Shown piece by piece: positions 2,582-42,489 of a stretch of 64,000 nucleotides of DNA. The first letter of the stretch is position 1. Each line of letters begins with the position of its first letter. Position numbers and translations under genes: made by a program. The notes under the pieces were generated by a model. It ran no database searches. It saw only the letters and a program-made list of their open reading frames with translations, and was not told the DNA's origin. Source of the DNA: a virus; IMG/VR virus record IMGVR_UViG_3300037069_002825, positions 15,794 through 79,793 of that record; one strand, written 5' to 3'.

Positions 2582-5500
2582 ATGCCCGAAGCGTCCTACA
2601 CGTCGTTCGCGGGGCTGCTGCGGCTACCGCCAGGCTCTCCGCTCAGCTCTGATGGGTTCGCGTTCCAGTGGATCGATCCGCTCACAATCGACAGGTTGCT
2701 CAAAATCGGCGCAGTCACGCACCATCACGACGGGGTGGCCGCCATGGGCAACCCGGTGGCGCTCCCGACAGTCAACGTCAAAGGCGCAGGTGGCTCGATC
2801 GCGGCGAACACCACGGTCGGCGTGACCTATACGATCGTCGACGATGAGGGCGGCGAGAGCCTTCCCGCCCCTCCACAGTCGGTCACCACGTCCGGCGGCG
2901 TCCCGGACCCACAGGAGGCACCAGCGGCGGCCGTCAGCTACGCGGCGGGCAATCTGTTGGCCTACACCTACACCTACGGCCTCACGATCACAGACGGCGC
3001 GGGTGGCGAGACGGCCCTTAGTCCACTGGTCACCGTCACGGTCGAACCCGGCTTCCTGCACGCGGAGGTCACACTGACCAAACTCGCTGAAATACTCGCC
3101 GAAGTCGGAGGAGGAGAATGGCGGCTGTGGCGCATGCAGGAAGGTGGCGAATGGAACCTGATCGGCAATGGGACGGCCGCTGAATTCAAAGACGACGGCA
3201 CGCACACGCCCGATTGCACCGTCACCCCACCGACCACCTCGACGACGCATGGCACGAGCGCACTGGAAGTGATAGTGCCCAACCCAGCTGAACCCCGGGC
3301 CACTTTCATCAGGCTCTACGCCACAACCGACGGCTCTTTCGGACCATCCTCCTACATCGCCGAATACCCCATCAGTGAAGCCGGCAAAGCAATCGAACTA
3401 ACGGCGCTTGCGCTGCTAAATGGTGCCCCTCCCGCCGTCAGTAGGTCGGTAGCTCACGCGGCCAAGATTGACCCAGACACGGACCTGATCGCCTTCCCCT
3501 GGAAGCGGCCCGTGGGCAAAGCGAGCGAACTCCCAACCGAACACAATGAAAACGGGGACGTGCGGGAGAGCCTCGACGATCACAAGCTCCACTCCTGGGA
3601 CGCCGAATCGAAAACCTGGGTGACCATCACCAGCGAAGGTGGTGGCAGCCTGGAGATAGAGAACCCTGCGGGCGAAGGGATGCCCGGCGAGCCCAAGCTC
3701 CAGTTCACGGGCGCTGGGGTTGCCTCGGTGGCCGACGACCCTACGCACAACCGTACCGTGGTCACCGTCAACGCGGGCACGATCATCAGCTACAAAGGCG
3801 TGTGGGCCGGGGGCACCACCTATCACGCGGGTGATGTCGTCACGCGCCTCGGCAGCTCCTACTTCGGAATCTCCGAAAGCAAAGGCGACGATCCGTCCAC
3901 CGACGAAGGGGTCCACTGGGGACTGCTCGCGGCCGCAGGCGCAAAAGGTGAAGGCGGCGGAGGCGGGGGACTGACATGGCGCGGCGCCTGGGCGAACGCC
4001 ACGACTTACGCGGTGAACGACGTGGTCTCCGAAGGTGGCAGCTCCTATGTGAGCGTCGTCGCCGAAAACGTCGGTCACAAACCCGCAGGGGACGAAACCC
4101 ACTGGGCCGTCGTCGCGGAGGCCGGCGCGGGACTCACCCCAAGGGGTGCATGGTCGGAAGCGACGACTTACAACGTCGCCGATCTCGTGGAGTACGAAGG
4201 CTCGGCCTACGTCAGCCGCACCGGCGCCAATCTCAACCACAACCCCGAAACGGACCCCACCCACTGGACGCTCTACATCGAGCGAGGCCTTGAAGGGCCG
4301 AAAGGGCTCAAAGGTGAAATTGGACCGCCCGGATCGCCGGGCATGCGCTGGCGAGGCGTGTGGGGCGCGGGGACCACCTATGCCGAAGATGATGTGGTGC
4401 AGCGCGAAGGCAGCTCCTACCTCAGCGTGGCCGTCGGCAACAAAGGACACGACCCCGCAACGGATGGCGAAGTTCACTGGCAGCTCGTGGCCGTGAAGGG
4501 GGCGGCGGGTGCCGCAGGCGCCCCCGGCGCCGAAGGCCCGGGGATTAGGTGGCGTGGAGTATGGAAATCTGGAACAGCCTATGCAGTGCATGATGCCGTC
4601 CAGCGGGGCGGTTCGTCCTACATCACGCAGGTTGGCAGCACGGGAGAAGATCCGCTGATCCCGAACATGATCGCCAACGGCAGCGCCGAGTCCGGGAGCA
4701 TGACGGGGATCTCCGGGGTCAACGCCGCGACAGTCGCCCGGAGCAAAGAACAGGCTCACGATGGGGTCTGGTCGTTCAAGGTGGTTACGGCAGCCGGTGC
4801 TGATTCTGGGGTGCTGTTCGCCGGGCCTACCATCACCTCGGGCGAGACATGCCGAGCCGAAGCCGCTATTTACGGGGAAGCGGGCGACAAATACCGCATC
4901 GCCTTCATGAACGGTGCGACACCCGAGATCGTCTACGAAGGCGAACTCGCCGAAGCCGGCTGGAATATCGTCACCGTAGCCGGAACGGCGACGACCACGA
5001 TCGACCACTTGCGCATCGATAACGGTGCAACGGGCGGGGCGCACAACTGGTACGTGGACAGCGTTGGCGCCTTCGCCGACAACTGGGAACTGCTCGCGGC
5101 CCGAGGTGGGAGCGCCTACGCTGTGACCGAAGCGGCCGAAGCCGGACGCATCATCGAGGACACGTGGTCGCTATCCGAAGCTATAGCGGTGGGCGCGAGG
5201 CCCGGGTTCTCAGTGCGCCTCGGCTCCAGTGACATTTCCCAGCATGTGATTGGAGTACGAACCCACCTCGCCGAAGGCGAAGTTACCGTGACGTTCCTCA
5301 AGAACGGGGAAGCGATACCCGGCCTCACCGGAATCGTCATCAAAGCGGGCGCAACCGAGTTCGATCTGACCGCGAAAAGCAAAGCCGAAGAAGAAGGTGG
5401 CGCGCATCCGCCGCTCGCCGTCGCTACGCACGACTATCTATCGATGGAAGTGACTGCGGCTACGGGCAGCCCGGCCCAGCTGTCGATGACGATCTTCCGT

Positions 5501-7871: not shown

Positions 7872-8984
7872 ATGAAACTTCTTGACAACCTCGACCTTCA
7901 AAAGCACGAACTACTCAACGCGGTAATCGAGAAGCTATCTGCACCGCCCGAAGGCGTGGAAGGTCTCGTCTACTTTGACACCACCAAACACGAATTCGGC
8001 TGTTACAACGGCACCGCCTGGGTTTATAGCGCGACCCTCGCGGAAGCCACCGAAACCACCCTGGGAGGAGTCAAGCTAGCGGGAGATCTCAAAGGCGGCA
8101 CGGGAGCAGCGCCGCATGTCACCAACCTGCATCTCGAAGGTGATACGGCGATCAACCACAAGCTCACGTCCGTCACGGACCCCACGAATCCCCAGGACGC
8201 CGCCACGCTGAAATTCGTGCTTGGCAAGGTCAACGGGCTCTCGTGGAAGCAGCACGTCCAGCTCGCTACCTTCGGCGCCCTCCCCGCCTACACACATTCG
8301 GGCACGGGTGAAACCGGCACCCTAGAAGCCAACGCAAACGGTGCCCTGACCGTTGACGGCGTAGCCGTGACCGTAGGCATGAGGATCTTCGTCACACAGG
8401 CCGTGGAAGAAAAGCACAACGGCATCTACGAAGTCACACAAGCTGGAGGCGCCGGGGAAAAGTACAAGCTCGTCCGATCCTCCGACGCCGACACGGGCGC
8501 GCTTCTCGAAAACGCAGCGGCCTTCGTGCAGGAGGGGACGGAATACGCGACGCAGGAGTTCGTGGTGTCTGACACGGGCGCGATCAACATCGACGTGACG
8601 GCCGTGAAAGTCATCGACTACTCAAGCGGCACGAGTGTCGTAGGCGATGGCACATACACCACCCGCACGGGCAACACGATCGCGCTCAAACCGAACACAG
8701 CTGTGCCCGCCGTGCCTGCCGAAGGGGCGGTCAGCGCGGTTGGCTCCGGAGCCGTGCGTGTCAAGCGCTTCGCCATCACAGGAAACGCCGCCAAGACAGA
8801 ATTCGAAGCGGAACACAAACTCGGGACCAAGCTACTCCTTGTGCAATGTCAGGAAAACGCAGCGGGTGAACCTACGGCTCCTGTGGAAATCGATTGGGAA
8901 CCCGTCAGCACGGAAATCATCAAGATCAAGTTCGTAACAGCGCCCGCCAAAGGCACCAGCTACTTTGTAACGGTCATGGGTTGA
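7872..8984 (+). CDS. Tail fiber-related structural protein
   Basis: RBS GGAG before ATG 7872; DPTNPQDAAT..FV and DGV....GMRI.V......NGIY motifs typical of fiber proteins. Confidence 0.65.
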   Translation: MKLLDNLDLQKHELLNAVIEKLSAPPEGVEGLVYFDTTKHEFGCYNGTAWVYSATLAEATETTLGGVKLAGDLKGGTGAAPHVTNLHLEGDTAINHKLTSVTDPTNPQDAATLKFVLGKVNGLSWKQHVQLATFGALPAYTHSGTGETGTLEANANGALTVDGVAVTVGMRIFVTQAVEEKHNGIYEVTQAGGAGEKYKLVRSSDADTGALLENAAAFVQEGTEYATQEFVVSDTGAINIDVTAVKVIDYSSGTSVVGDGTYTTRTGNTIALKPNTAVPAVPAEGAVSAVGSGAVRVKRFAITGNAAKTEFEAEHKLGTKLLLVQCQENAAGEPTAPVEIDWEPVSTEIIKIKFVTAPAKGTSYFVTVMG

Positions 8985-8988
8985 TCCT

Positions 8989-9894
8989 ATGAGCGCTATA
9001 AAGCCCTTTATTGAGACAGTACAGCTAAACAACGGTTTGATTATTCCGGCCTCAGCTGCTGCCGGACGAGTGCTCATGTCCGATGCCTCAGGCAATGCGA
9101 CATGGGAGCCGGATGATATAGGAGTTATCAAGACAAGCGCAAGTGCTTTTACGTTGCCAGAAAACTATGAATTTTGTAACGGGAGAACGTACGAACGCAC
9201 AGGCGAATTCGCCGTCTTGTATGAAATACTTTCTCACTCTTCCTTCAAAGTAAGTCTAACTAAAGGCTCCAAGATTCTCACTCTCAGCACTGCGTTTTCT
9301 AACTCAGGGTTCGGTATAGGGTGGCCCGTAGAGCTAGCTGGTGCGATCCCTGCGGGTACGAAAATAGCTAAACTTGTAGGTACCAAAGAAATCGAATTGA
9401 CAGCTGCTGCATCCGCAACTGTAACATCAGGTGAAAACCTTGCCGCTATATTTTTCCCGTGGGGAAACGGGAACGGAACAACTACATTCAACATACCTAA
9501 TATACCTGCCGGTACGGCTCTTGTGAACGGAGGCACCACTGCATTTCCGGTAGCTGTGGCAGGGGGAGCAGCTACGGTAACTCTGGCCGTAACTCACTTG
9601 CCTTCCCACGCACATGGAGGCAAAACTGGTACTGGGACCACGGGGACAGAAAGCGCGACCCACATACATAACCCTCCTGGGGGCAGTGAAGGTTCCGTTT
9701 TTCTTACAGGTGGAGCAACCAACTCGAACATAGGGCTGGGATCATCTTTCGCTACGGCCGCACATACAGGGGCAAATACAACAACGCACACTCATGCTGT
9801 TCCGGCGCTGACAGTTAGTGCCGAAGGCGGCGGAGAAGCGCATAGCAATATGCCTCCCTACGTAGGCACCAGTTTCATCATCAAGGTCAGCTAG
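8989..9894 (+). CDS. Tail-collar domain fiber protein, low GC
   Basis: P.NYEFCNG...LYEIL / WGNGNGTTTFNIP, LPSHAH, GGGEAHSNMPPY...FIIK. Confidence 0.8.
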   Translation: MSAIKPFIETVQLNNGLIIPASAAAGRVLMSDASGNATWEPDDIGVIKTSASAFTLPENYEFCNGRTYERTGEFAVLYEILSHSSFKVSLTKGSKILTLSTAFSNSGFGIGWPVELAGAIPAGTKIAKLVGTKEIELTAAASATVTSGENLAAIFFPWGNGNGTTTFNIPNIPAGTALVNGGTTAFPVAVAGGAATVTLAVTHLPSHAHGGKTGTGTTGTESATHIHNPPGGSEGSVFLTGGATNSNIGLGSSFATAAHTGANTTTHTHAVPALTVSAEGGGEAHSNMPPYVGTSFIIKVS

Positions 9895-11481: not shown

Positions 11482-11888
11482 TCAAGACGTTCGTGCTCAC
11501 CTACGACGAGGCACCTAAGTCGCTCAACGCGGGCGGCGCGGGTTCGCGCAGTCACTGGAGCAAGGGTTACGCCGAGAAGCGTCGCTGGGAAGGGATCTGG
11601 GCGCTGCTCCTGATCGAGGGCAAGGTTCCGCGCGGGATGACGCACTGCTCGGTCGAGGGACTGATCGAGTTCGTGCGCGCCCAGAGACGTGACGTGGAGA
11701 ACTACCGCCCTGCCCTGGTGAAGGCCTTTGCCGACGCGCTCGTGCACGGAGGCTGGCTCCCCGACGACGAGGAGCGGTTCTTCGTAATGGCCGGTCTGAC
11801 CCTTCGGGCCGGGATGGAGTCCGGCAACCCATTCGTGCAGGGTCGCACCACGCTCACACTTCAGGCGACCTATCCGGATGCCGACTGA
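11478..11888 (+). CDS. RusA-like Holliday junction resolvase
   Basis: PKSLN...HW, RRDVENY...KAFADALV.GG.LPDD; GTG overlaps upstream TGA. Confidence 0.75.
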   Translation: MIKTFVLTYDEAPKSLNAGGAGSRSHWSKGYAEKRRWEGIWALLLIEGKVPRGMTHCSVEGLIEFVRAQRRDVENYRPALVKAFADALVHGGWLPDDEERFFVMAGLTLRAGMESGNPFVQGRTTLTLQATYPDAD

Positions 11889-12546
11889 GGCGCCAACGAT
11901 CCGCACCTTCGCGGAGTACATGGCCGAGCGACGCTGGGTGGACATGCGCGTCGTCACCGTAGGCCGGGTAGACCGCGTGCGCATAGAGGGCCTCGACATC
12001 AGGCTGCACCAAGACCACGTGCACGTGCGGCAGAAGTTCCTGGAGAGTGAGACGGTGCGCTCCGCCGATCATGTGTTCGATTGTGAAGACGTGCGGTGGG
12101 TCAGGCCCACCAAACTGATGCTCGACCAGGTGCGCCCGTTGAGCCAGCCGCGCCCGGTGCCCGGCGGCGAGTCGGTCGACGATAAACAGGCGCAGGAGAT
12201 AGTGGACGCAATCGTCTCGGTGGTCTCGTTCACAAGTGGCGAGGCTGTCAGCGCGATCCGTGCGGGCGCCAACCGCGCGGGTCTGGACGAGCGTCAGGTT
12301 GCCATGTGGTGCGCCTTCGAGATGACCGACCTCTCGCTGGAAGTGATCTGCAAGCGTGAATTCGGATACCTCTCGACAATGCCCCTGGCTACGGTCCTCT
12401 CCTACATAGAAGACTTCTATCGGGGTGACCGATTTAGCAAGCGCTTCGTGGAAAGGGTCAGGGCCGCCGCCACGGGTGCCAGTCTCGCGCTGGGGTACGT
12501 GCCTCGACGCTCCGCTCTTGTCCCGGACTGGAAACGGGTGCTCTGA
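11878..12546 (+). CDS. Protein with C-terminal DnaA domain IV-like HTH
   Basis: RQVAMWCAFEMTDLSLEVICKREFG resembles DnaA_C RQIAMYL.RELTDLSL..IG..FG. Confidence 0.55.
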   Translation: MPTEAPTIRTFAEYMAERRWVDMRVVTVGRVDRVRIEGLDIRLHQDHVHVRQKFLESETVRSADHVFDCEDVRWVRPTKLMLDQVRPLSQPRPVPGGESVDDKQAQEIVDAIVSVVSFTSGEAVSAIRAGANRAGLDERQVAMWCAFEMTDLSLEVICKREFGYLSTMPLATVLSYIEDFYRGDRFSKRFVERVRAAATGASLALGYVPRRSALVPDWKRVL

Positions 12547-13748
12547 TGGACCTCACCATCTTCGGCAACGCCGTGGGGATCTCCGACATCAACGACTGGC
12601 GCGAATGCCCCGCTCGGATGGCGGACGGCATGCGCCGGCACACCGAGGGTGAGCTGCCCGGTCACACCAACTGGACCAACGCCTACGGCTCGGCGATCCA
12701 CGAGGCAATCTCGGTCGTCGAGAAAGAGTTGGTGTCCAACGAAGAGGCCATCGACCGCGTGTGGATCACCTACGGACCCTACCTCGACCCCGAGGATCTC
12801 GCGCTGTTGCGGGAGGACCTAGACAAATACCGTCGCGACACGCCGCTTGGCTTCCGGCTGGTGGCGGCCGAGGTGGACTGCCGCGTGCCGCTGGCCGTGA
12901 TAGACGGCACGCAGTATTACTTTCGCTTCAAGCTCGACGCGCTATATCAGTCGCTCGCCAACCCGTCACTCTTCTTTCACCGCGACTACAAGTCCTCCAA
13001 GTGGCCGAAAAGCGAGGAAGAAGTCCACAAAGATCCCCAGATGTCGGCGTACAACTGGGCGATTTTCGAGCTGTACCCCGAGTGCCAACGGCTGGTGCAG
13101 TCCTATGAGCAGCTGCGCCACGGCAACATCATCACCTCTCGCAACGACACGCAACGCGCCGAGACCAAGGACTGGCTGATCAGGAACGTGAAGGCGCTGC
13201 TCGCTGACGAGGAGATGAAGCCAAAGATCAACGACTTCTGTCGCTATTGCCCGAAAGTCATGGTGTGTCACGAGACGGAGCGCGCGACCACCTACTGGCG
13301 TGGCACGCTGGCGGTGCTCGCGCCGATGAGCAAGGAGGGCCGGCGCATCAAGGTCGACTTGGGCGACGACCAGGAAGAGGTCGAGCGGCTGATAACTGAC
13401 GTGCTGCCCCGCGCCATCACCGCGCGCAAGCACCTCGAATACTTCGAGAAGACACTAAAGGGCGTGCTCGACGAGATGCCAAGCGGTGAAAGGTCTCGGC
13501 TTGGCTGGCGCACCAAGGATCGCAAGTCGAAAACCTTCAACCCCGATGGACTGAAACGCATCCACGAGGCGACGGGCGATCTCTTCTACGACCTGATAAG
13601 TCTCAGCCGTAAAGCCGTCGACACCTTCATCGGGAAGCCGGAAAAGGGCAAGCCGCTCACCCCGCAGCTGACAGTGATCCGCGAACAGGAGCTGGAGATC
13701 GTGGGCTCATCCCTTGAGGTGCCCGAGCGGGCGCCGGACGAGGACTGA
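12546..13748 (+). CDS. PD-(D/E)XK RecB/Cas4-like exonuclease
   Basis: CPAR, GSAIH, KLDAL, DYKS, QMSAY, CRYCP...C. Confidence 0.85.
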   Translation: MDLTIFGNAVGISDINDWRECPARMADGMRRHTEGELPGHTNWTNAYGSAIHEAISVVEKELVSNEEAIDRVWITYGPYLDPEDLALLREDLDKYRRDTPLGFRLVAAEVDCRVPLAVIDGTQYYFRFKLDALYQSLANPSLFFHRDYKSSKWPKSEEEVHKDPQMSAYNWAIFELYPECQRLVQSYEQLRHGNIITSRNDTQRAETKDWLIRNVKALLADEEMKPKINDFCRYCPKVMVCHETERATTYWRGTLAVLAPMSKEGRRIKVDLGDDQEEVERLITDVLPRAITARKHLEYFEKTLKGVLDEMPSGERSRLGWRTKDRKSKTFNPDGLKRIHEATGDLFYDLISLSRKAVDTFIGKPEKGKPLTPQLTVIREQELEIVGSSLEVPERAPDED

Positions 13749-19471: not shown

Positions 19472-19792
19472 CTCGCGGCCGTGCAAAACGCCGGCTAGGT
19501 AGGAAACCAGCATCGCGTAGACCCAGCTCCTGACAGCGCCCTCGGCATCAGCTATCTCCTCGCGAAGGTTCAGATCGGACCTCTTGAACTGGGCCTCGAC
19601 CGCGACTATCAGCTCGTCGAAGCTCTCGCGTGTGGCGAGCATAATCGCTCCGCCTGTGGCGTTGATGTCTACTCCTAGCGCCGCACAGTTGCCCTCCAGC
19701 GCCGCGAGCGCGCTCGCGGCGTCCTCGTTGGACCACATCGGCCATCGCTGGATCTCCGCGAACAGTTCGGCGACCTGCTCCTCGGACTTCAT
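19427..19792 (-). CDS. Hypothetical protein
   Basis: ATGA coupling to the recombinase gene. Confidence 0.55.
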   Translation of the reverse strand: MKSEEQVAELFAEIQRWPMWSNEDAASALAALEGNCAALGVDINATGGAIMLATRESFDELIVAVEAQFKRSDLNLREEIADAEGAVRSWVYAMLVSYLAGVLHGRELGSDGKLGAVQPDN

Positions 19793-20805
19793 GCCACGAG
19801 CCCGAGACGCTCAGCGAACGCGCCTTCCGTCTGTTCGCCAACGCGCTGGATGTCGGCCTTTGCGATGCGTGCGTAGGCAAGGGTCTGATCGATCGAGCCG
19901 TGTCCCATCGTGATCTGGAGGTGCTCAAGCGGCATGCCGGCGCGCAGGCTCTCGGTTGCGTAGGTGTGACGGAACGGGTGCCAGTTCCAGACCTTACCGG
20001 AGAGGCTGATCCCGTTGTGCATCTGGTCGAGTGTCATTGGCGTGAGGTAGTCCGGTGGGTACAGCCGGAGCCACGGTCGGTTGTGGGTGACGCCGAGTCG
20101 CTCGCGGAACTCCAGCCATTCGGCGACGGCTAGGCGTGAATGGGCCATGTAGGGGACCTCGCGTTCCTTCGCCGTGCCCGGTCCCTGCTTGGCGGTGACG
20201 ACGATCACACCGTCGTTGTCGGGGTGAATCTGGGCCATCGTAATATGGCATATCTCGATGCAACGCAGGCCCTCCTCCAACGCGAGTGAGACCTGCGCCT
20301 CCAGCTGGTAGCGCCTCGCCCATAGCCAGATCCCCCGTTGGATCGGCGTCTTGCCCTCGTCGAAGCGCTTGAGTTTGCGAGAGCCCTTCCCGCTCAGCGG
20401 CGGTGACGGGTAACGCTCGGCCAGCTCGCGGTAGAAGGTGCGGATCTCGCTGGGTGTGTAGGGCTTCGGCGTAGACTGCGCGGAGCTGCCCCGTGGGTTC
20501 GGTACGGCTTTCAGGCGCAGGCGCAGCTCGGCGTCGATGAGTCCCGCTCTAAAGGCCCACGTGTGAAAGGCGCGAATCATCCCGTGCTTCGTTCGTACGG
20601 TGTTGGGGTGAAGACCACGGTCAATCTCGGCACCCATCCACTCCATGACCTCGCCGGGTTGCATCTCCACCAGCGGACGGTCATTCAGCACTTCCTCGGC
20701 AAAGCTCCCCAGCAGGGCAAGCTGTTCCTTGCGCCGCTGGGGAGTCACGCTGTTGGGCGCCATGTGCTCTTGCTCAAAGCGCAGCAGCAGCTCCTTGTTC
20801 GTCAT
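19789..20805 (-). CDS. Tyrosine recombinase (XerC/D-like)
   Basis: GLRCIE, AKQG, HPFRHTYA, MGH, TLAY catalytic set; SAM-like N-terminus. Confidence 0.92.
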   Translation of the reverse strand: MTNKELLLRFEQEHMAPNSVTPQRRKEQLALLGSFAEEVLNDRPLVEMQPGEVMEWMGAEIDRGLHPNTVRTKHGMIRAFHTWAFRAGLIDAELRLRLKAVPNPRGSSAQSTPKPYTPSEIRTFYRELAERYPSPPLSGKGSRKLKRFDEGKTPIQRGIWLWARRYQLEAQVSLALEEGLRCIEICHITMAQIHPDNDGVIVVTAKQGPGTAKEREVPYMAHSRLAVAEWLEFRERLGVTHNRPWLRLYPPDYLTPMTLDQMHNGISLSGKVWNWHPFRHTYATESLRAGMPLEHLQITMGHGSIDQTLAYARIAKADIQRVGEQTEGAFAERLGLVA

Positions 20806-34790: not shown

Positions 34791-35171
34791 ATCTCCCAGC
34801 CCTCGGTGTAGGATGGATCAAGGAGGATCGTGTGCGATACCAGGCGAGACAGCTCAAGGACGACGAGGCGAAGACTCACCCATGCCTGGTCAACTACGTC
34901 GACGTCGCAAGCAATGGCGTTCGCCGAGAAGACCCTGCAACTTGCCCGCGAGAACGAAGCCCGCGCCGGACGCCCGTGGCTGCTCTTCACCTGGTGGAAG
35001 GTCACTCGTCGGATCGACCGCCGGAGCGCGTGCGATGAAACGCTACCAATCGTTCAAAATCCTCCGTGCGAGGCGCCGCTATCTCGCGCAGGTGAACGCG
35101 GGACAGCCGGCGAGAGTCGAACCGCACCGTTGCCACCCGCGCCGTGACAGGCGCCGACCGGGCAAGCCGAG

Positions 35172-35660
35172 ATGACAACCACCATCGTTCTTCAGCTGGA
35201 TACCGCCGAGAGTCGCCAGCTCGCTGAGTTCAAGGCCCGAGTCAAGGACAGGCGCGCCCTCGAACTGAGCGACCAGGAGGTCGCCAAGGCGGCGCTCCTC
35301 GCGGCGCTCGCCGAAGCGCGCGTCGCCCCCGCAAACGAACGGGGCTTCTACCACCTGCTTCTGTCCTTCGCAGAACTCATGAGGGGGCGTGTGACCACGA
35401 CAGCGGCAGCCGCCCCCGCGACTGCCGCGACGACGCCTGCCCCCGATCAAGAGACCGTGAAGATCTATACGTGGGTCCGGGTCGTGGGTCTTGAGCCCAT
35501 CGAGGTCAAGGAGGACGCCGAGGTCGTGCTGGAACAACACCGCAGGGCGCTGAATCACGACAGTCGTTGGGTTGAGCTTCACCCGGCGGCGGGTGGCTTC
35601 CTCCTCGTGGTCGCCGAGGACATCCGGGGGATCGTCCAGCGAAACGCCGAGCGACTTTGA
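35172..35660 (+). CDS. Hypothetical protein
   Basis: Phage-like codon usage; coupled stop. Confidence 0.55.
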   Translation: MTTTIVLQLDTAESRQLAEFKARVKDRRALELSDQEVAKAALLAALAEARVAPANERGFYHLLLSFAELMRGRVTTTAAAAPATAATTPAPDQETVKIYTWVRVVGLEPIEVKEDAEVVLEQHRRALNHDSRWVELHPAAGGFLLVVAEDIRGIVQRNAERL

Positions 35661-35914
35661 TGGAGGGCGACGTGTGGAACAGGATTGCAATGATCGAAGC
35701 CGCTCGCGTCGATTGCCGATCCCGGGGCTGCACGTGCGGCGACCGCGCGTTGATCGTGACACTCGGGGACAGCGTCATCACCGACGCCGACGTGGCGCTC
35801 GGGATCTATCACCTAGCCTGCTGTCCGCTTTGGGTGCCCCGCGATCTGCGAAACCTGCCGCCGGACACCCAGTGTGACTCCATCGTCAATGTTGAGCTAC
35901 CGGACATCGGCTAG
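35657..35914 (+). CDS. Small Cys-rich protein
   Basis: C...GC.C...H...CP; coupled. Confidence 0.45.
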   Translation: MMEGDVWNRIAMIEAARVDCRSRGCTCGDRALIVTLGDSVITDADVALGIYHLACCPLWVPRDLRNLPPDTQCDSIVNVELPDIG

Positions 35915-35918
35915 GAAC

Positions 35919-36395
35919 ATGAAAGCGATCTCGCTGTGGCAACCGTGGGCCTCCCTCATCATGCTCGACGCGAAGCGCATCGAGACGCGCTCGTGGAAGC
36001 CGCCGGAGTCAGTCATCGGGCAGCGAGTGTTCATCCACGCCGCCAAACGGCTGGACCCGTGCGTGCTGGAGGAACCCTTCTCGACGGTGATCGGTGATCC
36101 CGCCAACGCACCGATAGGTGTGCTGCTCGGCAGTGTGAAGCTAGAGGGCGCGTGGCGCATCGACCATGAGTGCGAGGCCGGGATGCTCGCGCGGGAGTAC
36201 CATCGCACGGATGATGGCCGGCGTGACCCGGCTGCTGCCGAGCGAGAGCTGGCATTCGGTGACTTCACTGTGGGAAGGTGGGCATGGGGGCTAGCCGATG
36301 TGCGCCCGTTGCAAAGGCCGCTCCCGTGGAACGGCGGCCAACGATTCTGGAATCTCGGCGAGACCCTCGAAGGGCTGCTAGCCCACCACGCGTGA
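35919..36395 (+). CDS. ASCH domain protein
   Basis: MKAISLWQPWASLI...KRIETRSW, IHAAK, GRWAW, G.QRFW. Confidence 0.88.
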   Translation: MKAISLWQPWASLIMLDAKRIETRSWKPPESVIGQRVFIHAAKRLDPCVLEEPFSTVIGDPANAPIGVLLGSVKLEGAWRIDHECEAGMLAREYHRTDDGRRDPAAAERELAFGDFTVGRWAWGLADVRPLQRPLPWNGGQRFWNLGETLEGLLAHHA

Positions 36396-36423
36396 TGATT
36401 ATCGATCGAAGTCGAGCGGGCAC

Positions 36424-38232
36424 ATGACCCCCGGGCACCCCGTAGAGGGAGAGGCACGAGAGGCGCGCTGGGGTTCCGGCGGTCCAGGTAGGGGCGCTCT
36501 CGCTGCCCTGTTGGGTGCGCTTGAGCGTCGTCGCGCATTGTTCTGGACGGGCCGCGTGCTGATAGAGCTTGACCGCGAGTTTGACCCGGTTGAGGAGGGC
36601 ACGGGTGCTGTCCAGATGGTCCTCGACGACCAAGACTTCGCGGCTTTGAAGGCGCTGGCCGTCCCGGTCGAGCGGGGAGAGGCACGAGAGGCGACGTGGC
36701 AGGACGCGATCGACTGGCTGCGACGTGAATACGCCCACGAGCGGGCCGACACGATCATGCACTACTACGCATATCGCTACGCCGACGACCTTGAGCGACA
36801 CAAGCCTGCCGCCGTCCCGGTCGAGCGGGAGCACGAGGACACACCAACGTGTCTCCCGATGAGCGTACGGGAGCTACTAGCGGAGCTTTTCCTGCATGTC
36901 CAGAAGCACGAGGTCGACGAAGTCGAGCGACGCGTTGCCGACGCGCTCGCGGGGAAGCTTCACTGGATCAGCGACGACCAGCGGGCACTCGAACTTGCGC
37001 GTTGCGTCCTCGCTGCTGCTGGTGGCGCCTCAGGGTTCCAAGGGGTCCGCCATCGTTTCGAGGCTGACTGGGTGCCGGTCGACCGGACGCACGACGATGC
37101 ACGCGCGATGGAGAAGACGCCTGGGCGGCAGGAGGACCCTTGGCATGCGGTCGGTCGTGAGATCGGTGAGGCGCACCGGGAGCGGGAGCACGAGGTCTCA
37201 GACGCCGAAGTGAAGGCGGTCGCGGCGATCCTCAGGAACGTATGGCTCAAAGAGCTAGACGGCCTGGGGGTCATCGCGGACGAAGCGGAGAACATCGCTA
37301 TCGATTGCCTCCGGGCCGCTCGGCGCGCTGCTGTTCGTGGCACCTCACTCGACTCGTGGGAGTTGCCAGAAGGGTGGGAAGATCACGATCTGGAGGAGCT
37401 TGATCTCTATGCGCGCAAGCTGACCATCGATGTGGACGAGATGATCGATGCTGGAAGCTTCACCCGCGATGGGCTACGGAGGGCCATTAGCGCAGTTGTG
37501 GCGGGGCGTGACACCTCACCCGAGCGCGTGAACGTCCCTGGCTATCGGGTGCGTGGAGAGGACGGGACGCTCGGCAACACGGTAGTCGATCGCCGCAAAG
37601 GTGAGCGCCGGCAGGGTGAACGGCGCAGCGAGGCGAACAGCCCCCGGTCGGAAATGCTGCCTCAGCGTCGGGACTGGGGCAAGGGCGATCGCCGGAGCGG
37701 GAACGACCGCCGTGACACCTCACCCGAGCAGTCGGGGGGGCCAACCGACGAGGAGCTGACGGAGCTGATCGAGCTTCCCCGTGACCTCGCTGCTGTCTTG
37801 AAGGACCCGGGCATCATCATCGCCCAGGACCAAAAGGTATTCGAGCTGATCGCAAAGTGGCAGAACGCTGCGTGTCCGACCCTCGGCGTTACCCCGACCT
37901 CACCCGAGCAGCCGGAGGAATCGCACGCGACGCAGCCTGCGGGGCTTCGTGTCGGCGGCCGGGTTTGGAGAGGCGGCCATTGGCGGTCGGCGAGCACCGA
38001 AGACGGGGGTGGCCCCGCCATTGTCAAGACTCCCGACGTAGAGCCAGATTCACACGGCGAGCATGCCCCCGCGTCCCATGATGAGGTAGAGCGGCTCGCC
38101 AAGTGGCTGCACGGCAATTGCTCCGACATAGAGAAGACCTACACATGGGCGAGATTGCCCTTCTTCTATCGCCACCGCTTTCGCTCACAGGCCCGGGCCG
38201 CTCTCGCCGCTACACAGGGAGGCCGGGACTGA
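36424..38232 (+). CDS. Mosaic multi-module protein joined by repeated linkers
   Basis: Unrelated blocks separated by (A)VPVER-type and DTSPE-type repeats. Confidence 0.6.
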   Translation: MTPGHPVEGEAREARWGSGGPGRGALAALLGALERRRALFWTGRVLIELDREFDPVEEGTGAVQMVLDDQDFAALKALAVPVERGEAREATWQDAIDWLRREYAHERADTIMHYYAYRYADDLERHKPAAVPVEREHEDTPTCLPMSVRELLAELFLHVQKHEVDEVERRVADALAGKLHWISDDQRALELARCVLAAAGGASGFQGVRHRFEADWVPVDRTHDDARAMEKTPGRQEDPWHAVGREIGEAHREREHEVSDAEVKAVAAILRNVWLKELDGLGVIADEAENIAIDCLRAARRAAVRGTSLDSWELPEGWEDHDLEELDLYARKLTIDVDEMIDAGSFTRDGLRRAISAVVAGRDTSPERVNVPGYRVRGEDGTLGNTVVDRRKGERRQGERRSEANSPRSEMLPQRRDWGKGDRRSGNDRRDTSPEQSGGPTDEELTELIELPRDLAAVLKDPGIIIAQDQKVFELIAKWQNAACPTLGVTPTSPEQPEESHATQPAGLRVGGRVWRGGHWRSASTEDGGGPAIVKTPDVEPDSHGEHAPASHDEVERLAKWLHGNCSDIEKTYTWARLPFFYRHRFRSQARAALAATQGGRD

Positions 38233-38468
38233 TGGACCCAAACGGCAACATCTATCTCCTTCCGGAGGACGAGATTCCGGCCGAGGACAAGGCACGGATG
38301 GATGGCTACCTCCGAGGCAAGGCTGAGAACGATCTGGAGGTTTCGCGCCTCTTCTTGCAGGTCGGAGTCGAGCGGGAGAGAGCCGCAATGGCTGAGGTTG
38401 CAGCACGTGAGGCATTGACCGAACGCGACGAAGCCGAGGCTACACAAGGAGACGGCGACCGTGGATGA
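38232..38468 (+). CDS. Hypothetical protein ending ATQGDGDRG
   Basis: GGAGG RBS, TGATG coupling. Confidence 0.55.
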   Translation: MDPNGNIYLLPEDEIPAEDKARMDGYLRGKAENDLEVSRLFLQVGVERERAAMAEVAAREALTERDEAEATQGDGDRG

Positions 38469-38625
38469 ATACGAGCGCATGAAGCAGGCGATCGAAGTTG
38501 GCCGTGGCGTAGGGCAATCGCCAGTGATGTCGGTAGCGAGGATGAGACCGGTTTGCAAAGACGCTGGTGTTCTCCTGCGCCGCTGGCTTGACGAGCAGGG
38601 CGCTACACAAGGAGAGGGCGAGTGA
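38461..38625 (+). CDS. Small hypothetical protein ending ATQGEGE (not in ORF track)
   Basis: AAGGAG RBS, GTG start, GTGA coupling downstream. Confidence 0.55.
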   Translation: MDEYERMKQAIEVGRGVGQSPVMSVARMRPVCKDAGVLLRRWLDEQGATQGEGE

Positions 38626-38918
38626 TCGTCGGGTACCGACAGATGAATCCCCGCGAGAGGGCATCGATGCGCCGAGAGGTCCTAATCGACATCTTGCGCG
38701 AGCGGCCGCTGCTCAGTACAAGCGAGTTGAGCGCCATTCTGCTTGCGGAGACGGGTGGTCCGCCCGCGATGCTTACAGGCGCGATCTTCGCTGGCCCTTG
38801 GACGGTCTACAGCGACCTCTCGACGCTCGCAAAGCAGGGCGTCGTGCATCGCTGGAAGGCGTCCGAGCGGCGCGCCGTCTCATGGTCTGTCGCTGATTCG
38901 GGAGGAGCGGGCGAGTGA
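38622..38918 (+). CDS. Winged-HTH protein
   Basis: RR..L..IL......STSEL...TVYSDL..L.KQG.V. Confidence 0.6.
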   Translation: MIVGYRQMNPRERASMRREVLIDILRERPLLSTSELSAILLAETGGPPAMLTGAIFAGPWTVYSDLSTLAKQGVVHRWKASERRAVSWSVADSGGAGE

Positions 38919-39325
38919 GCCTCAAGGCGATGGAGAAGGTCTGCTGGGAGGCGACCTGCGACAACTGCGGCGAGGGCGACAACTTCGAATACTACGGGAG
39001 CTTCCACTACCCGAGCCGTGAGGCGGCGCTGGAAACCATCGTCAGTGACCTTGAGTGGGTCGAGCGCGACGGAATCCTGCTCTGCAACGGCTGCATCGAA
39101 AACGAGGATTACCCCCCGGAGGATGTAGAGAAGGCGGTCGCGTCGCTGATTGAGAAGGTGCGCGCCGAGCGGGCCGATGGCTCACCCGAGCACTCGTCCT
39201 GCTGTGGTGTGGGCGTCCGTGTTGATAGCGGCGATGAGGGGACGAGCTGCTACGTGTGCGAGCGGTGCGGCAAGCCGTGTGATGCGCGTCGTGGCTCTCC
39301 TGAGCGGGGAGGAGAGGGCAAGTGA
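38915..39325 (+). CDS. Zn-finger mosaic protein
   Basis: CDNC...CNGC then CC...CERC...C after the DGSPEHS linker. Confidence 0.6.
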   Translation: MSLKAMEKVCWEATCDNCGEGDNFEYYGSFHYPSREAALETIVSDLEWVERDGILLCNGCIENEDYPPEDVEKAVASLIEKVRAERADGSPEHSSCCGVGVRVDSGDEGTSCYVCERCGKPCDARRGSPERGGEGK

Positions 39326-40107
39326 GCACGCAACCCGACTACGAGTATCGGCTCTCGTGGGAGTGCCCGAGCGCCGCTTGTGTCATGGCTCATCAGGGCG
39401 TGGCTTGGGAGACGCTGACGGCTGAGGAATGGGACGGCCTTCCGTGGGAGTCGAGCTACCGGATCGCGGACGGCGGTGACATCTTCACGCAGCGACACAC
39501 GCTCGAACTATGGGCCGAGCATCACCACGAGCCCGTGCGCAACGTCCGCTTCGCGCGTCGCCCCATGCCCGATCCCGACGAGGGCTGGGACGAGATCGCT
39601 GAGCGTGGGGCGACGGGAGTAACCCACTGGAAGCCAGTTGACCGTGTCATGGCGCGGGCCGATGGCTCACCCGAGCACTCCCCGCACATCACGACGGCGC
39701 ATCGCGTCTATGAGGGGAGCAGCGGTGAGATCGTGGTCGATCCCCCCGTTGACGGGCCGCACGTCTTCATCAACCGGCTGCGGTACGGGAACCTCTCGGA
39801 GCCGATGAGCGGGAGGGCGCTCCGCCTGCTACCCAACCCTCCGGTACCCGAAGACGACGACCTGTGGGAAGAGACTGCGGTCGGTGCCGATGGGGACCGT
39901 CTTGTCGGCCGTGACGACGTCCTGAAGGTCGGGAACGGCGAGCGGTTCTACACATCGCCTTCGTCAATCACTGCGGGCTCACCCGAGCACTCCACGGAGG
40001 AGGCGAAGGTCTGCAAGCTTTGCAACGGGAGGGGTTACCGGAAAGTGGCGGGTGCGCCCTACAGCGAACCGTGTGGCTGCGAGCACTCCACGGAGCCCGA
40101 GCGATGA
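39322..40107 (+). CDS. Mosaic protein (three modules, GSPEHS linkers)
   Basis: Linkers at 39654 and 39976; terminal CKLCNG.G...C.C. Confidence 0.6.
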   Translation: MSTQPDYEYRLSWECPSAACVMAHQGVAWETLTAEEWDGLPWESSYRIADGGDIFTQRHTLELWAEHHHEPVRNVRFARRPMPDPDEGWDEIAERGATGVTHWKPVDRVMARADGSPEHSPHITTAHRVYEGSSGEIVVDPPVDGPHVFINRLRYGNLSEPMSGRALRLLPNPPVPEDDDLWEETAVGADGDRLVGRDDVLKVGNGERFYTSPSSITAGSPEHSTEEAKVCKLCNGRGYRKVAGAPYSEPCGCEHSTEPER

Positions 40108-40652
40108 GCGATCGGCTTCGGATCGTCCCGATGATGCGCGACGAGGCGAACGATTTCGTGAAGCGCCATCATCGCCATTCGGGCATCCGCCAGGGCTACC
40201 GCTTTGCTCTCGGCGCCGCGCTCGGTGACGAGTTGGTTGGCGTGGCGATCGTCGGTCGTCCCGTGGCGCGTGGTCTGCAGGATGGCTGGACGGCCGAGGT
40301 TCTTCGGCTATGCACGACAGGCACGCGCAACGCCTGCTCGTTTCTCTATGGCGCTTGCTGGCGCGCTGCTAGAGCGCTCGGCTATACGAAGCTCGTCACG
40401 TACACCCTCGCGAGCGAGGCAGGAGCGTCGCTTCGCGCGTCGGGCTGGCGCGTAGTCGCCGAGGTAAAGGGCCGCGAGTGGACGACCCCGAGCCGCCCAC
40501 GCGACCCAAGTCACCCACAGGATCGTCTCCGCTGGGAGCTGGCCGAGCACCCCACGACTGAACCGGCTGGACGTAAAGCGGTATCTGCTGAGGATCTCGC
40601 GCAGGCGATTGACGGAGTTGCAGCCGGCATGATAGCTTCGCAACGCGCATAG
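40104..40652 (+). CDS. XF1762-like GNAT-fold protein
   Basis: AN.FV..HHRH, GVAIVGRPVAR, EV.RLC..G..NACS.LY.A..RAA.ALGY....TYTL..E.GASL.A.GW. Confidence 0.75.
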   Translation: MSDRLRIVPMMRDEANDFVKRHHRHSGIRQGYRFALGAALGDELVGVAIVGRPVARGLQDGWTAEVLRLCTTGTRNACSFLYGACWRAARALGYTKLVTYTLASEAGASLRASGWRVVAEVKGREWTTPSRPRDPSHPQDRLRWELAEHPTTEPAGRKAVSAEDLAQAIDGVAAGMIASQRA

Positions 40653-40685
40653 GCCAATATCAACGCAACGAAGAAGGGGAGGTCA

Positions 40686-40985
40686 GTGGTGGATAGACCC
40701 GAAGCAGTGAAGGTGCTGAGGACTCACGCGCAACGTCACTACGGTGAGCTTCGTTACGAGAAAATCACCCTAGTGCCGCTAATCAGGGGTGCGATCCTGG
40801 CGTCGACGGACGAAACGGACGGAACGGAGTCTGGGTATGAGGTGGTGAACACGGCGATCGAAGCCCTTCTCGCGCCGGAGGGATCGGTGGCCGAGACGGG
40901 AAGCGAGCTGTTCATAGGCCGCGATGGCACCCTGTCGAAACTGGGGTCACCCGAGGCGGCTGGCCCACTGGCCGACGCTCAATAG
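40686..40985 (+). CDS. Hypothetical protein
   Basis: GGGGAGG RBS. Confidence 0.55.
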   Translation: MVDRPEAVKVLRTHAQRHYGELRYEKITLVPLIRGAILASTDETDGTESGYEVVNTAIEALLAPEGSVAETGSELFIGRDGTLSKLGSPEAAGPLADAQ

Positions 40986-40988
40986 CTG

Positions 40989-41366
40989 ATGACCCGCGAG
41001 ATTACGGTTACGTTCGGTGACGCGGGAGAGCCCACGGTCTACGTTGGCGGCGTCCGGCACCACTCGGTGGTCGACGTGATCTACCTTGAGCATGGGGCTC
41101 TTGAGGTCGGGAAGATCACCGTGGACCTGACGAGACCCGTGCGTCCGACGGTCGAGGAGCGCATGGCGGCGGCAACGCGCCGCCGCGAGCTGGAGCAGCG
41201 CATCAGGGCATATCCGGGAATCGCGACCGAGGCGCTGTTCGTCAACCTCGACTGCCGCACCTATCCAGGCGAGCACCCCAGGGGCGAAATGCTCGTGGAT
41301 CTCGCGGAGTTGCATCGAGAAGGCAAGATCAAACGCGACGACGAGCAGAAATGGACCGTGATATAG
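40989..41366 (+). CDS. Hypothetical protein with wHTH-like C-terminus
   Basis: I...PGI....L...L.EL..EGKI.....KW. Confidence 0.5.
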   Translation: MTREITVTFGDAGEPTVYVGGVRHHSVVDVIYLEHGALEVGKITVDLTRPVRPTVEERMAAATRRRELEQRIRAYPGIATEALFVNLDCRTYPGEHPRGEMLVDLAELHREGKIKRDDEQKWTVI

Positions 41367-41373
41367 TCGCGCC

Positions 41374-42489
41374 ATGGCCTCGATTGCCGGCAATGTAAGC
41401 GCTCTCTCTGCCGCCACGGCGCTCAACCCCGATGGTTCAGCGGTCATCAGCCTGACGGGGTCGGACGTTGCCCAGCAGCTTCGCTTCACGTCTAGCGAGG
41501 TTGTCAACATCAGGGCCTCTCTCACCCCGCCATCGTCGATTCCCTTCGAACCGGGGATGAACACTGGAACGGAACCTGAGGACTTCCTTTGCCTCGCCAG
41601 GGAGGGTGTCAAGTTCGTCCGCGTCGAGATCAAAGCTGTGGACATATTTACGGCGCCGCCGACCACGTTGTCTCGCGCTAGCCTGGTCGTGGCGGCCTCC
41701 ACCATCATCGAAGAGTTCGCGGCGCAGGGTATTCGGGTGCAGCTCCTCGTGGGCGCCCACGGTTCGATGGTCTCACCCGAACACATGGCCGCGCTCGGTG
41801 ACATCGCCAAGCGGTTCGGTCCCCACAGTGGCTTCCGCCTTCCGATCCGGCGGATCGAGCTGATGAACGAGACGAGCATGGGCTACCAGTACAACGACGG
41901 TCACGAATCGGCGTCGTACAAGCTGCGCGCTCGCACCTACGCCGAACGCGCCAAGGAAGGCGCGCTCGCGATGCTCCCCTACGGCGTCGGGGCCATCGTG
42001 CAGGCCGAGGACGGCGGTTCCGGTTCCAGCGTCTGGGTCGACGAAATGTTCTCCGCCGTGCCGGATCTCGCTAGTCACGCCGGCGGCTGGGTGATCCACG
42101 CCTACCCGTCGCAGGGCAAACCGGGTGTCGTCGACACCGGCGGCGCACCGAAGCTGGAGCGGATGATCGCCGACCTCGCTGCGCACGGTGATCACACTAT
42201 TCCGATCGAAATCACCGAGTGGGGCTTTTGCTCCAACAACGGAGAGGTACTCAACAACGGCCAGCACTTCACCTGGGCGGAAGCGGCGGTGATGGCCAAA
42301 GAACACCTCGCAGAAATCAAGGGCATCTGCGGGCCGCGTCTGCGTTCGTTTATGGTGTATCAGGTGCGCGACCAGGCGCCGAGTGTCCCGGCCAGCGCGG
42401 ACCATGAACGCTACTTCGGTGTGCTCGGCCACGAAGGGCAGCCTAAGGGTGCCTACACCGAAGCCATCGAGCACATCCTCGCCAGCTGA
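41374..42489 (+). CDS. Clan GH-A glycoside hydrolase
   Basis: IELMNE (acid/base), IHAYP, IEITEWG (nucleophile), YQ.RD, FG.L. Confidence 0.8.
   Translation: MASIAGNVSALSAATALNPDGSAVISLTGSDVAQQLRFTSSEVVNIRASLTPPSSIPFEPGMNTGTEPEDFLCLAREGVKFVRVEIKAVDIFTAPPTTLSRASLVVAASTIIEEFAAQGIRVQLLVGAHGSMVSPEHMAALGDIAKRFGPHSGFRLPIRRIELMNETSMGYQYNDGHESASYKLRARTYAERAKEGALAMLPYGVGAIVQAEDGGSGSSVWVDEMFSAVPDLASHAGGWVIHAYPSQGKPGVVDTGGAPKLERMIADLAAHGDHTIPIEITEWGFCSNNGEVLNNGQHFTWAEAAVMAKEHLAEIKGICGPRLRSFMVYQVRDQAPSVPASADHERYFGVLGHEGQPKGAYTEAIEHILAS

Follow-up and report, generated by a model that had tools for sequence, protein, structure and literature searches.

Phage genomes are mosaics, and the assembly of multi-domain proteins from small ORFan genes is poorly understood. 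To our knowledge, the linker hypothesis for modular exchange has little sequence support beyond the PeSLs of T4-type phages and tail-fibre motifs. The present work concerns a stretch of 64,000 nucleotides (the window; bases 15,794-79,793 of the 79.8-kb IMG/VR virus record IMGVR_UViG_3300037069_002825, 91% complete by CheckV), which was derived from soil metagenomes and has a GC content of about 64%. Between 36.4 and 41 kb it carries an array of unrelated protein modules joined by short linkers, and these linkers are written as direct DNA repeats. Among published systems, the PeSL (promoter-early stem-loop) cassettes of T4-type phages come closest: there, short conserved repeats flank small genes, and recombination between neighbouring copies shuffles these genes, with gain and loss, and makes mini-circles (PMC2839356, Arbiol et al. 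2010; PMC4122927, Comeau et al. 2014). The PeSL is an intergenic unit composed of a sigma-70 promoter and a terminator stem-loop. Compared with PeSLs, the array is similar in that short repeats flank small units of unknown function in a plastic region, and the differences between relatives map to the repeats (at the protein level, for the database homologues P0070 and P0003 against E136 and A602, two proteins of the array). Unlike PeSLs, the repeats here all lie within open reading frames (ORFs), in frame and coding for linkers, with no promoter or stem-loop, and the phage is a high-GC soil phage instead of a T4-type myovirus.

The array proteins and the two genes that follow them were as follows (aa, amino acids; E, expectation value).

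36424-38232, plus strand: A602, a 602-aa chain of at least eight mini-domains, supported by the ORF, its codon periodicity, module-wise homologues and a beads-on-a-string AlphaFold2 model
38915-39325, plus strand: E136, two modules joined by RADGSPEHS, ending in RRGSPERGGEGK and a stop
39322-40107, plus strand: F261, three modules, of which module 1 is common to homologues P0066, P0067 and P0068, ending in EHSTEPER and a stop
40104-40652, plus strand: gene G, a Mom-like DNA-modification gene (phrog_1384, E 4e-38)
40686-40985: gene H, a small gene with an SPE copy close to its end

Exact direct repeats were concentrated in this region: eight of the 12 repeats of at least 16 nucleotides (nt) in the window fell within 36,447-40,095 (3.7 kb), and triplet-shuffled whole windows held 1.15 such repeats on average. 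The core CTCACCCGAG(C) occurred six times in this interval, on the plus strand each time and always read as S-P-E, as the first-pass annotation of this DNA had claimed. In the whole window CTCACCCGAG gave seven matches against 0.46 expected, a number reached by 0 of 100 shuffles, and CTCACCCGAGC, to which this core belongs, was the sole 11-mer present five times or more. A chance origin of the repeats is excluded by these shuffle controls. A minus-strand copy of CTCACCCGAGC at 2459-2469, in the tail-gene region, was at chance level and was discarded.

The linkers are given below, one per line; the predicted local distance difference test score of the AlphaFold2 model is abbreviated pLDDT.

36439-36465, plus strand: L1, PVEGEAREA, its right 19 nt identical to 36675-36693
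36658-36693, plus strand: L2, AVPVERGEAREA, a composite, identical to L3 over its left 19 nt and to L1 over its right 19 nt
36808-36843, plus strand: L3, AAVPVEREHEDT, with GAGCGGGAGCACGAGG found again at 37180
37069-37095, plus strand: L4, WVPVDRTHD, a diverged copy with pLDDT <50
37171-37200, plus strand: L5, HREREHEVS
37507-37525, plus strand: L6, RDTSPE, an exact 19-nt repeat
37711-37738, plus strand: L7, RDTSPEQSG, left flank of module 2
37897-37918, plus strand: L8, TSPEQPE, right flank of module 2, sharing 91% identity with L7 across 22 nt
39169-39195, plus strand: RADGSPEHS, copy 1 of the exact 27-nt repeat
39287-39307, plus strand: RRGSPER, a synonymous variant (TCT CCT GAG)
39654-39680, plus strand: RADGSPEHS, copy 2 of the exact 27-nt repeat
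39966-39999, plus strand: AGSPEHSTE, overlapping the SPEHS and EHSTE families
40080-40095, plus strand: EHSTE, an exact 16-nt repeat that together with 39984 brackets a 32-codon Cys-rich module
40544, plus strand: EHPTTE, a variant in the Mom-like gene, followed by a short appended tail common to homologue P0015
40943-40955, plus strand: LGSPEA, the eighth SPE copy, close to the end of gene H

The four repeat families proposed in the first-pass annotation were all recovered at the coordinates given there. Family A comprised exact 19-nt pairs at 36447/36675 and 36658/36811, an exact 16-nt pair at 36823/37180 and a weaker copy at about 37072 (VPVDRTHD). Family B comprised the exact 19-nt repeat CGTGACACCTCACCCGAGC at 37507/37711, ACCTCACCCGAGCAG at 37897 and a degenerate copy at 37341 that matched at 10 of 12 positions. 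The exact 27-nt repeat at 39169/39654 formed family C, together with 17-18 nt at 39976 and the synonymous variant at 39296, and family D consisted of an exact 16-nt repeat at 39984/40080 with a variant (12 of 13) at 40544, in the tail of the Mom-like gene. Additionally, a copy absent from the earlier listing, GGGTCACCCGAGG, was found at 40947 in gene H, which brought the SPE family to eight copies across 3.4 kb.

The repeats are DNA-level copies rather than convergent peptide motifs, because rare synonymous codons are identical among the linker copies. Seven of the eight SPE linkers were written TCA CCC GAG, in a phage that uses TCA for 10% of Ser, CCC for 36% of Pro and GAG for 62% of Glu (P about 2e-11 under independent codon choice), and the 27-nt repeat includes GAT, the minor Asp codon. 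Aligned copies had sharp core edges and unrelated flanks. All plus-strand SPE copies occupied the same codon phase of their own ORF in four genes, in more than one absolute frame. The copy at 39296 holds GSPE through two synonymous changes, so some protein-level constraint on it, or a greater age, is possible. No local inverted repeats were detected at the linkers or flanking the modules, and the boundaries are direct repeats; a hairpin in the SPE core was rejected, as it amounts to only 3-4 base pairs.

One continuous ORF of 602 codons at 36424-38232 was backed by the GC-by-codon-position profile (periodicity of GC at third positions, GC3). The database call for A602 (P0001, 564 aa) begins at 36538, corresponding to aa 39, inside module 1; the ATG at 36424 is the better start because homologues of module 1 begin at about aa 21. 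The AlphaFold2 model of A602 (38 homologues) had a low mean pLDDT of 54 and a beads-on-a-string profile. Confident blocks were predicted at aa 21-80, 91-120, 160-199, 260-300, 450-480 and 551-599, with segments of pLDDT <50 between them. Of the nine linker sites (the eight linkers and the degenerate copy at 37341), seven lay mostly or wholly in such segments and two lay partly in them. The modules are real units, and the claim that unrelated modules are bounded by the repeats agrees with the low-pLDDT linkers between confident blocks and with the unrelated flanks. Two of the modules recur in the comparisons below.

36484-36657, plus strand: module 1, aa 21-78, LFWTG..MVLD, AlphaFold2 pLDDT 71
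37739-37896, plus strand: module 2, aa about 437-490, ELIELPRDL..WQNA

One module is made up of low-complexity, Arg-rich sequence, and several others are mini-fingers rich in Cys. Neither Pfam nor PHROGs returned a family for the whole proteins or for single modules, even with the E cut-off relaxed to 1; no usable match came from the ESM Atlas, and a Foldseek search with module 1 had no match below E = 4. Given their early-operon setting beside ASCH-like and Mom-like genes, the modules may plausibly act in host takeover or counter-defence.

Relatives were sought with a HMMER scan of A602 against 1.84 billion representative proteins at a cut-off of E = 0.001. The scan returned 64 matches, among them one self match (P0001) and one spurious match (P0035), which left 62 non-self homologues. 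A fixed protein architecture in relatives had been named as the outcome that would speak against shuffling, and none was seen: nearly all of these homologues match one module, which is free-standing or lies at varied chain positions. Module 1 was found as a free protein of 52-67 aa, or at positions 5-60, 142-207 and 386-479 of longer proteins, and module 2 had about 40 homologues, embedded or free-standing. The Arg-rich module (aa 368-429), the ELPEGWE module (aa about 310-361) and aa 250-301 were all found in other contexts. The ELPEGWE and Arg-rich modules occur in the same order in P0018, where they are joined by HPETGERE and PLQDGGERE. F261 module 1 was present in 144-aa proteins, and in P0068 it was fused to a MerR-type helix-turn-helix (HTH) and lay between ETEAT repeats; a short-homologue search found no homologue of F261 modules 2 and 3. 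P0066, P0072 and P0074 (one 90% cluster) come from nearly identical strains, in which the gene for F261 module 1 and the next gene were in some cases separate (144 and 102 aa) and in others joined at the junction where they overlap, giving an in-frame fusion of 219 aa; this reflects either a live gene fusion or an assembly error.

P0070 and P0003 are the two closest relatives that share the SPE linker. P0070 (99 aa) matches E136 at 82% identity from ADGSPE through to the C-terminus, a stretch that takes in the second linker RRGSPE; the N-terminal module of P0070, by contrast, is unrelated. P0003 shares 91% identity with A602 across aa 382-436; the similarity stops at RDTSPEQ and a different module follows. 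In these protein alignments, both relatives switch partner exactly at the linker. Over the window, P0070 and P0003, the SPE(H/Q/R) linker had at least five different right-hand and five left-hand partners.

The most informative result is that each genome carries its own linker or linkers. The repeated linkers of the homologues were as follows.

P0002: PVEGEA and PVEREHE
P0006 and P0008: SSAPE
P0009 and P0010: TTEG
P0015 and P0018: HPEPRQ, QPVDRA, HPETGERE and PLQDGGERE
P0019: VQEQP
P0026 and P0030: AENGD(N/T)
P0042 and P0064: AAREEP
P0068: ETEAT

Internal 4-mer repeats exceeded shuffles (p at most 0.01) in 9 of the 36 homologues of at least 140 aa. Module 2 was flanked on both sides by direct repeats that differed among P0009/P0010, P0015, P0019, P0030, P0050, P0059 and the window (TTEG, AENGDT, QPVDR, VQEQ, PSGE or SEQE, varying from protein to protein), and it lay between a different direct repeat in at least nine other genomes. 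In total, genome-specific flanking repeats were seen in three contigs and about nine proteins.

Two of these contigs, both unrelated, confirmed the pattern at the DNA level. Contig L008, a 33-kb viral contig, has only module 2 in common with the window. A core of about 26 nt, GCCGCTCTCGCTGCCCGTGAGGAGCC, which reads AALAARE(E/D), is present on it nine times in phase, in at least six ORFs and three absolute frames; five copies of a second core of about 29 nt, reading (DLN)DQEREA, stand at gene starts and ends. The interiors between its repeats are unrelated, helical in some cases and a zinc finger in another. In contig L027, an insert of 94 codons that includes module 2 is bracketed by two in-frame copies of an exact 31-nt repeat (LERVTRERDE). 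Elsewhere on L008, about nine tandem 33-nt repeats, which could be iterons or an origin, occupy 3307-3600 directly upstream of a 232-aa ORF (3636-4334) that looks like an ERF-type annealing protein, and a Cas4-like exonuclease ORF lies at 8415-9236.

Searches for further nucleotide relatives gave less. Scans of IMG/VR with A602, F261, P0003, P0002, P0070 and the pattern of the junction cassettes described below revealed no close relative, and scans of genome contigs revealed no relative. Among cultured phages (INPHARED), none resembled the array region: megablast and blastn gave only short matches to the Mom-like gene, and tblastn of A602 gave none. The metagenome scan yielded 17 loci, mostly free-standing module-2 genes without repeats. 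In L015 (5776-6225), L020, L023, L024, L026, L028 and others, a free protein of about 80 aa consists of module 2 and a tail ..(L)YRQTQ..SSTTPAGC(Y/F/C), and the contigs encoding it are many, metagenomic and in some cases longer than 100 kb. Its sequence suggests a conserved family of small peptides that end in a C-terminal Cys region; a precursor resembling ribosomally synthesized and post-translationally modified peptides is only a guess. An ORF of contig L012 (6900-7976) includes about 110 aa of low-complexity sequence, an almost perfect run of AAEAAGAAWAAEAA... The C-terminal tail of the Mom-like protein, ..AVSAEDLAQAIDGV.. (window 40544-40652), reappears in P0015 at aa 190-215, directly before a linker and module 2.

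The genes around the array are arranged compactly. An ASCH-like gene lies upstream of A602, and three small genes separate A602 from E136.

38232-38468: gene B, small
38461-38625: gene C, small
38622-38918: gene D, small

Most neighbouring genes from A to G overlap by 1-8 nt (TGATG, GTGA or ATGA). Within 35000-41500, no promoter-like or terminator-like site accompanied the repeats: the sole promoter-like site is on the minus strand, away from any repeat, and the terminator-like sites numbered three, equal to the shuffle level, with none at a repeat. Given the gene overlaps and the lack of such sites at the repeats, the block is one translationally coupled operon. Five consecutive gene junctions (38208-39330) share (GCTACAC)AAGGAGAGGGCGA followed by GTGA, a cassette that combines a strong ribosome-binding site (RBS; AAGGAG) with a stop/start overlap in rare codons (GCT, ACA, CAA, GGA).

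38208-38233, plus strand: junction A/B, RBS and TGATG stop/start overlap
38439-38463, plus strand: junction B/C (GCTACACAAGGAGA..)
38601-38626, plus strand: junction C/D (GCTACACAAGGAGAGGGCGAGTGA), rare codons, tail ..ATQGEGE and stop
38903-38923, plus strand: junction D/E
39310-39330, plus strand: junction E/F

Because the cassettes share sequence, successive proteins end in ..ATQG(E/D)G(E/D). The SPE and EHSTE linkers run into these junctions, as seen at the ends of E136 and F261 and in P0070, which ends in RRGSPEHSTEGEG and a stop; the C-terminus of P0003, ..AALAATQGESE, is likewise a junction-cassette tail. In Cluster K mycobacteriophages, start-associated sequences containing an RBS stand just upstream of many start codons in one orientation (PMC3203893; Pope et al. 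2011). The five junction cassettes resemble them as conserved, RBS-containing sequences before starts in one orientation. They differ in sequence, and the cassette here doubles as coding sequence for the C-terminal tail of the upstream protein, whose stop codon it overlaps.

Further features of the window were located as follows.

2.6-9.9 kb: tail-fibre genes, followed by a replication block with a PD-(D/E)XK exonuclease and a DnaB-like helicase
12546-13748, plus strand: the PD-(D/E)XK exonuclease, the only recombination gene identified, not adjacent to the array
19789-20805, minus strand: a phage-type integrase, the only one, 16 kb from the array
near 32 kb: start of the rightward block of small genes

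The place just upstream of an exonuclease gene is the usual one for an annealing protein. In the window, a 222-aa ORF at 11878-12546 lies directly upstream of the exonuclease, with only a weak match to the DnaA_C HTH (E 0.008). An AAA_24 match considered as a recombination gene was traced to the P-loop of the DnaB-like helicase.

Modules are indeed shuffled at the linkers, and we put at about 0.5 the probability that the in-frame repeat linkers act as exchange sites for the gain, loss and reshuffling of mini-domains. In this proposal, the region of 36.4-41 kb is a compact block of early genes from an uncultured, temperate soil phage of high GC content (64%). Independently folding mini-domains of 30-110 aa are strung there into chains of 602, 136 and 261 aa, and the Mom-like gene and its downstream neighbour each carry a short appended tail. 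The joints between modules are short, acidic, proline-rich, disordered linkers encoded by direct DNA repeats of 16-36 nt, which match even at rare codons and share one codon phase. Since the linker copies share codon phase, an exchange or deletion between any two of them, even across genes or frames, would stay in frame. The mini-domains are common to otherwise unrelated phages, where they stand alone or in chains with the direct repeats of the respective genome. The history judged most likely is that a cassette enters a linker by short-homology or template-switch recombination and duplicates the linker; the in-phase copies would then provide short-homology sites for further gain, loss and reassortment, and the same exchanges would keep the copies alike. 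That recombination between the repeats is the cause, which enzymes are responsible, and any benefit in the form of combinatorial early or host-takeover proteins, we infer. The repeat lengths are near the shortest homologies known to be used by phage annealing proteins and RecA. Exact repeats ranged from 16 to 31 nt, and the distance from repeat to module end from 0 to 30 residues among genomes; a transposon with fixed ends is unlikely because both vary, and the variation fits homology or template switching.

Several results weigh against exchange at the linkers. The first-pass annotation had credited the phage with an exonuclease, which is present, and with a single-strand annealing protein (SSAP)-like protein, which could not be upheld: RecT, ERF and Rad52 models were negative and no SSAP was identified. 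A YqaJ model was negative as well. In four soil runs, as low-depth assembled contigs, which say nothing about rare recombinants, no joints, indels, variant letters or deletion or circle junctions were seen; three partial matches (X5-X7) were pieces of identical sequence and not variants. The expectation that relatives would break at the linkers was borne out by P0070 and P0003 at SPE and did not hold for some other breakpoints: in P0066 and P0067 the divergence from F261 sets in four residues ahead of the repeat, and on its left side the P0003 match begins 14 residues into a module. The breakpoints of the closest relatives are known at the protein level only, and domain boundaries would attract alignment ends under any model; the 124 ends of high-scoring segment pairs counted are not independent. 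Finally, homologous exchange alone leaves unexplained how one module comes by different linkers in different genomes, and the repeats may partly or wholly be a consequence of insertion instead of its cause. The shuffling part of the recombination-handle proposal stands, and the choice between handle and insertion scar is inference.

If the repeats were passive scars, cassette insertion would have duplicated its target through a staggered break or a double template switch, and the copies would have had no later role and would now be decaying. This accords with the variable repeat lengths, with the tendency of modules to have a flanking pair each, with the lack of junctions in the contigs (assembled contigs only), and with L027, whose 31-nt repeat lies in a helical segment and not in a linker, so that removal of the insert restores a continuous helix. 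It sits badly with the SPE family, whose eight copies over 3.4 kb and four genes have many partners and which recurs in relatives beside still others, and with the nine copies of one core in L008; moreover, exact identity over 19-27 nt beside unrelated flanks suggests ongoing homogenisation or very recent events at many sites. Scars without later function are an unlikely alternative. Somewhat more doubtful is an undescribed mechanism that spans lineages and actively inserts small coding cassettes into soil-phage ORFs, duplicating 16-36 nt of target and building in-frame repeat-module-repeat arrays, which would be a dedicated generator of combinatorial early proteins and not a by-product of general recombination; formally it would resemble the repeat duplication of CRISPR spacer integration, or a long target-site duplication.

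Selection on the encoded peptide would act if the chains were polyproteins and the linkers were cleavage sites of a protease from the phage or its host. The pattern x-(P/V/T)-E before a small or charged residue is present in nearly every linker, the linkers are disordered in the AlphaFold2 model, and one copy retains GSPE despite synonymous changes. Glu is abundant in these proteins anyway, however, and protein-level selection leaves the identity of rare synonymous codons unexplained. A single specificity is unlikely because linkers differ within a protein (PVEGEA and SPE) and between genomes (AALAAREEP, TTEG, ENGDN, VQEQ). Models of S78, S77 and ClpP proteases were negative in the 79.8-kb record, with a weak test for S77, whose control also matched nowhere, and the array sits in an early operon, bordered by ASCH-like and Mom-like genes and outside the virion genes. 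We regard cleavage sites as improbable. The coding repeats might instead be DNA or RNA signals, such as operator- or stoperator-like sites, an internal RBS for each module, or RNase sites. The five junction cassettes are clearly RBSs (AAGGAG with GTGA overlap, in rare codons), GGAG or GAGG occurs within many linkers of the window and of homologues, and all copies have a single orientation; yet the SPE core has no Shine-Dalgarno-like run, most linkers have no start codon at a working distance, no copy is out of phase or intergenic, no promoter-like or terminator-like site stands at the repeats, and several unrelated families occur inside 4 kb. Internal starts behind linkers were rejected on spacing and Shine-Dalgarno content, and a single regulator-binding site was rejected on the number of unrelated, phase-locked families. 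We regard a signalling function as very improbable. High-GC, Glu/Arg/Pro-rich sequence is prone to short chance matches, but ordinary paralogy, low complexity or an assembly artefact is already largely refuted and hardly credible: the shuffle controls and the unrelated repeat flanks speak against it, one contig of depth 116 spans the whole region, with identical fragments in other runs, and the same architecture recurs in unrelated contigs.

At least three unrelated soil phage contigs thus hold letter-identical in-frame boundary repeats, and the same domain has different flanks in about nine genomes. If the repeats are exchange sites, they would offer a testable route for domain shuffling below the level of the gene and would explain some phage 'hypothetical proteins' as long chains of tiny domains, which annotators should search module by module. 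If true, this would also supply natural frame-preserving junctions for phage protein engineering.

The array can be compared with several other systems. Integrons contain exchangeable units separated by repeats, and Rickettsia palindromic elements are in-frame selfish insertions that keep the ORF open. The likeness to an integron library drawn in the first-pass annotation holds as an analogy only, since the array has no attC-like inverted repeat and no IntI or other dedicated integrase beside it, its neighbours being ASCH-like and Mom-like genes; unlike the Rickettsia elements, its modules are diverse conserved domains with variable ends and not one palindrome. In the Botstein 1980/Susskind linker hypothesis, and by Clark et al. 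2001 for HK620, short conserved sequences at module boundaries were reportedly proposed to guide the homologous exchange of modules among phages. The lambdoid boundary sequences are said to lie at gene boundaries, to be common across the phage group and to be weakly supported, whereas the boundaries here lie within proteins, are genome-specific and are exact to 16-36 nt. Tetart et al. 1998 reportedly described the gp37 His boxes as in-frame conserved motifs that allow segment swaps. For gp38, the motifs are glycine-rich and in frame, separate variable segments and permit swaps by recombination (PMC3157838, Trojet et al. 2011). In-frame short motifs at segment borders are a likeness to the T-even adhesins. 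The adhesin motifs lie in one fold and yield variants of one function, whereas the linkers here are disordered and the modules are unrelated domains. Polyvalent proteins, encoded by phages and by conjugative elements, combine 2-15 unrelated domains per polypeptide in highly variable architectures (PMC5512222, Iyer et al. 2017). A602, with at least eight blocks and varied architectures among its homologues, is similar in this respect; polyvalent proteins are large and have recognisable conflict domains (anti-restriction domains, methylases or peptidases, for example), whereas no module here matches Pfam or PHROG, and repeat-bounded linkers lie outside that definition. What is new here, compared with all these systems, is boundary repeats that are intragenic, genome-specific and frame-locked, in high-GC soil phages.

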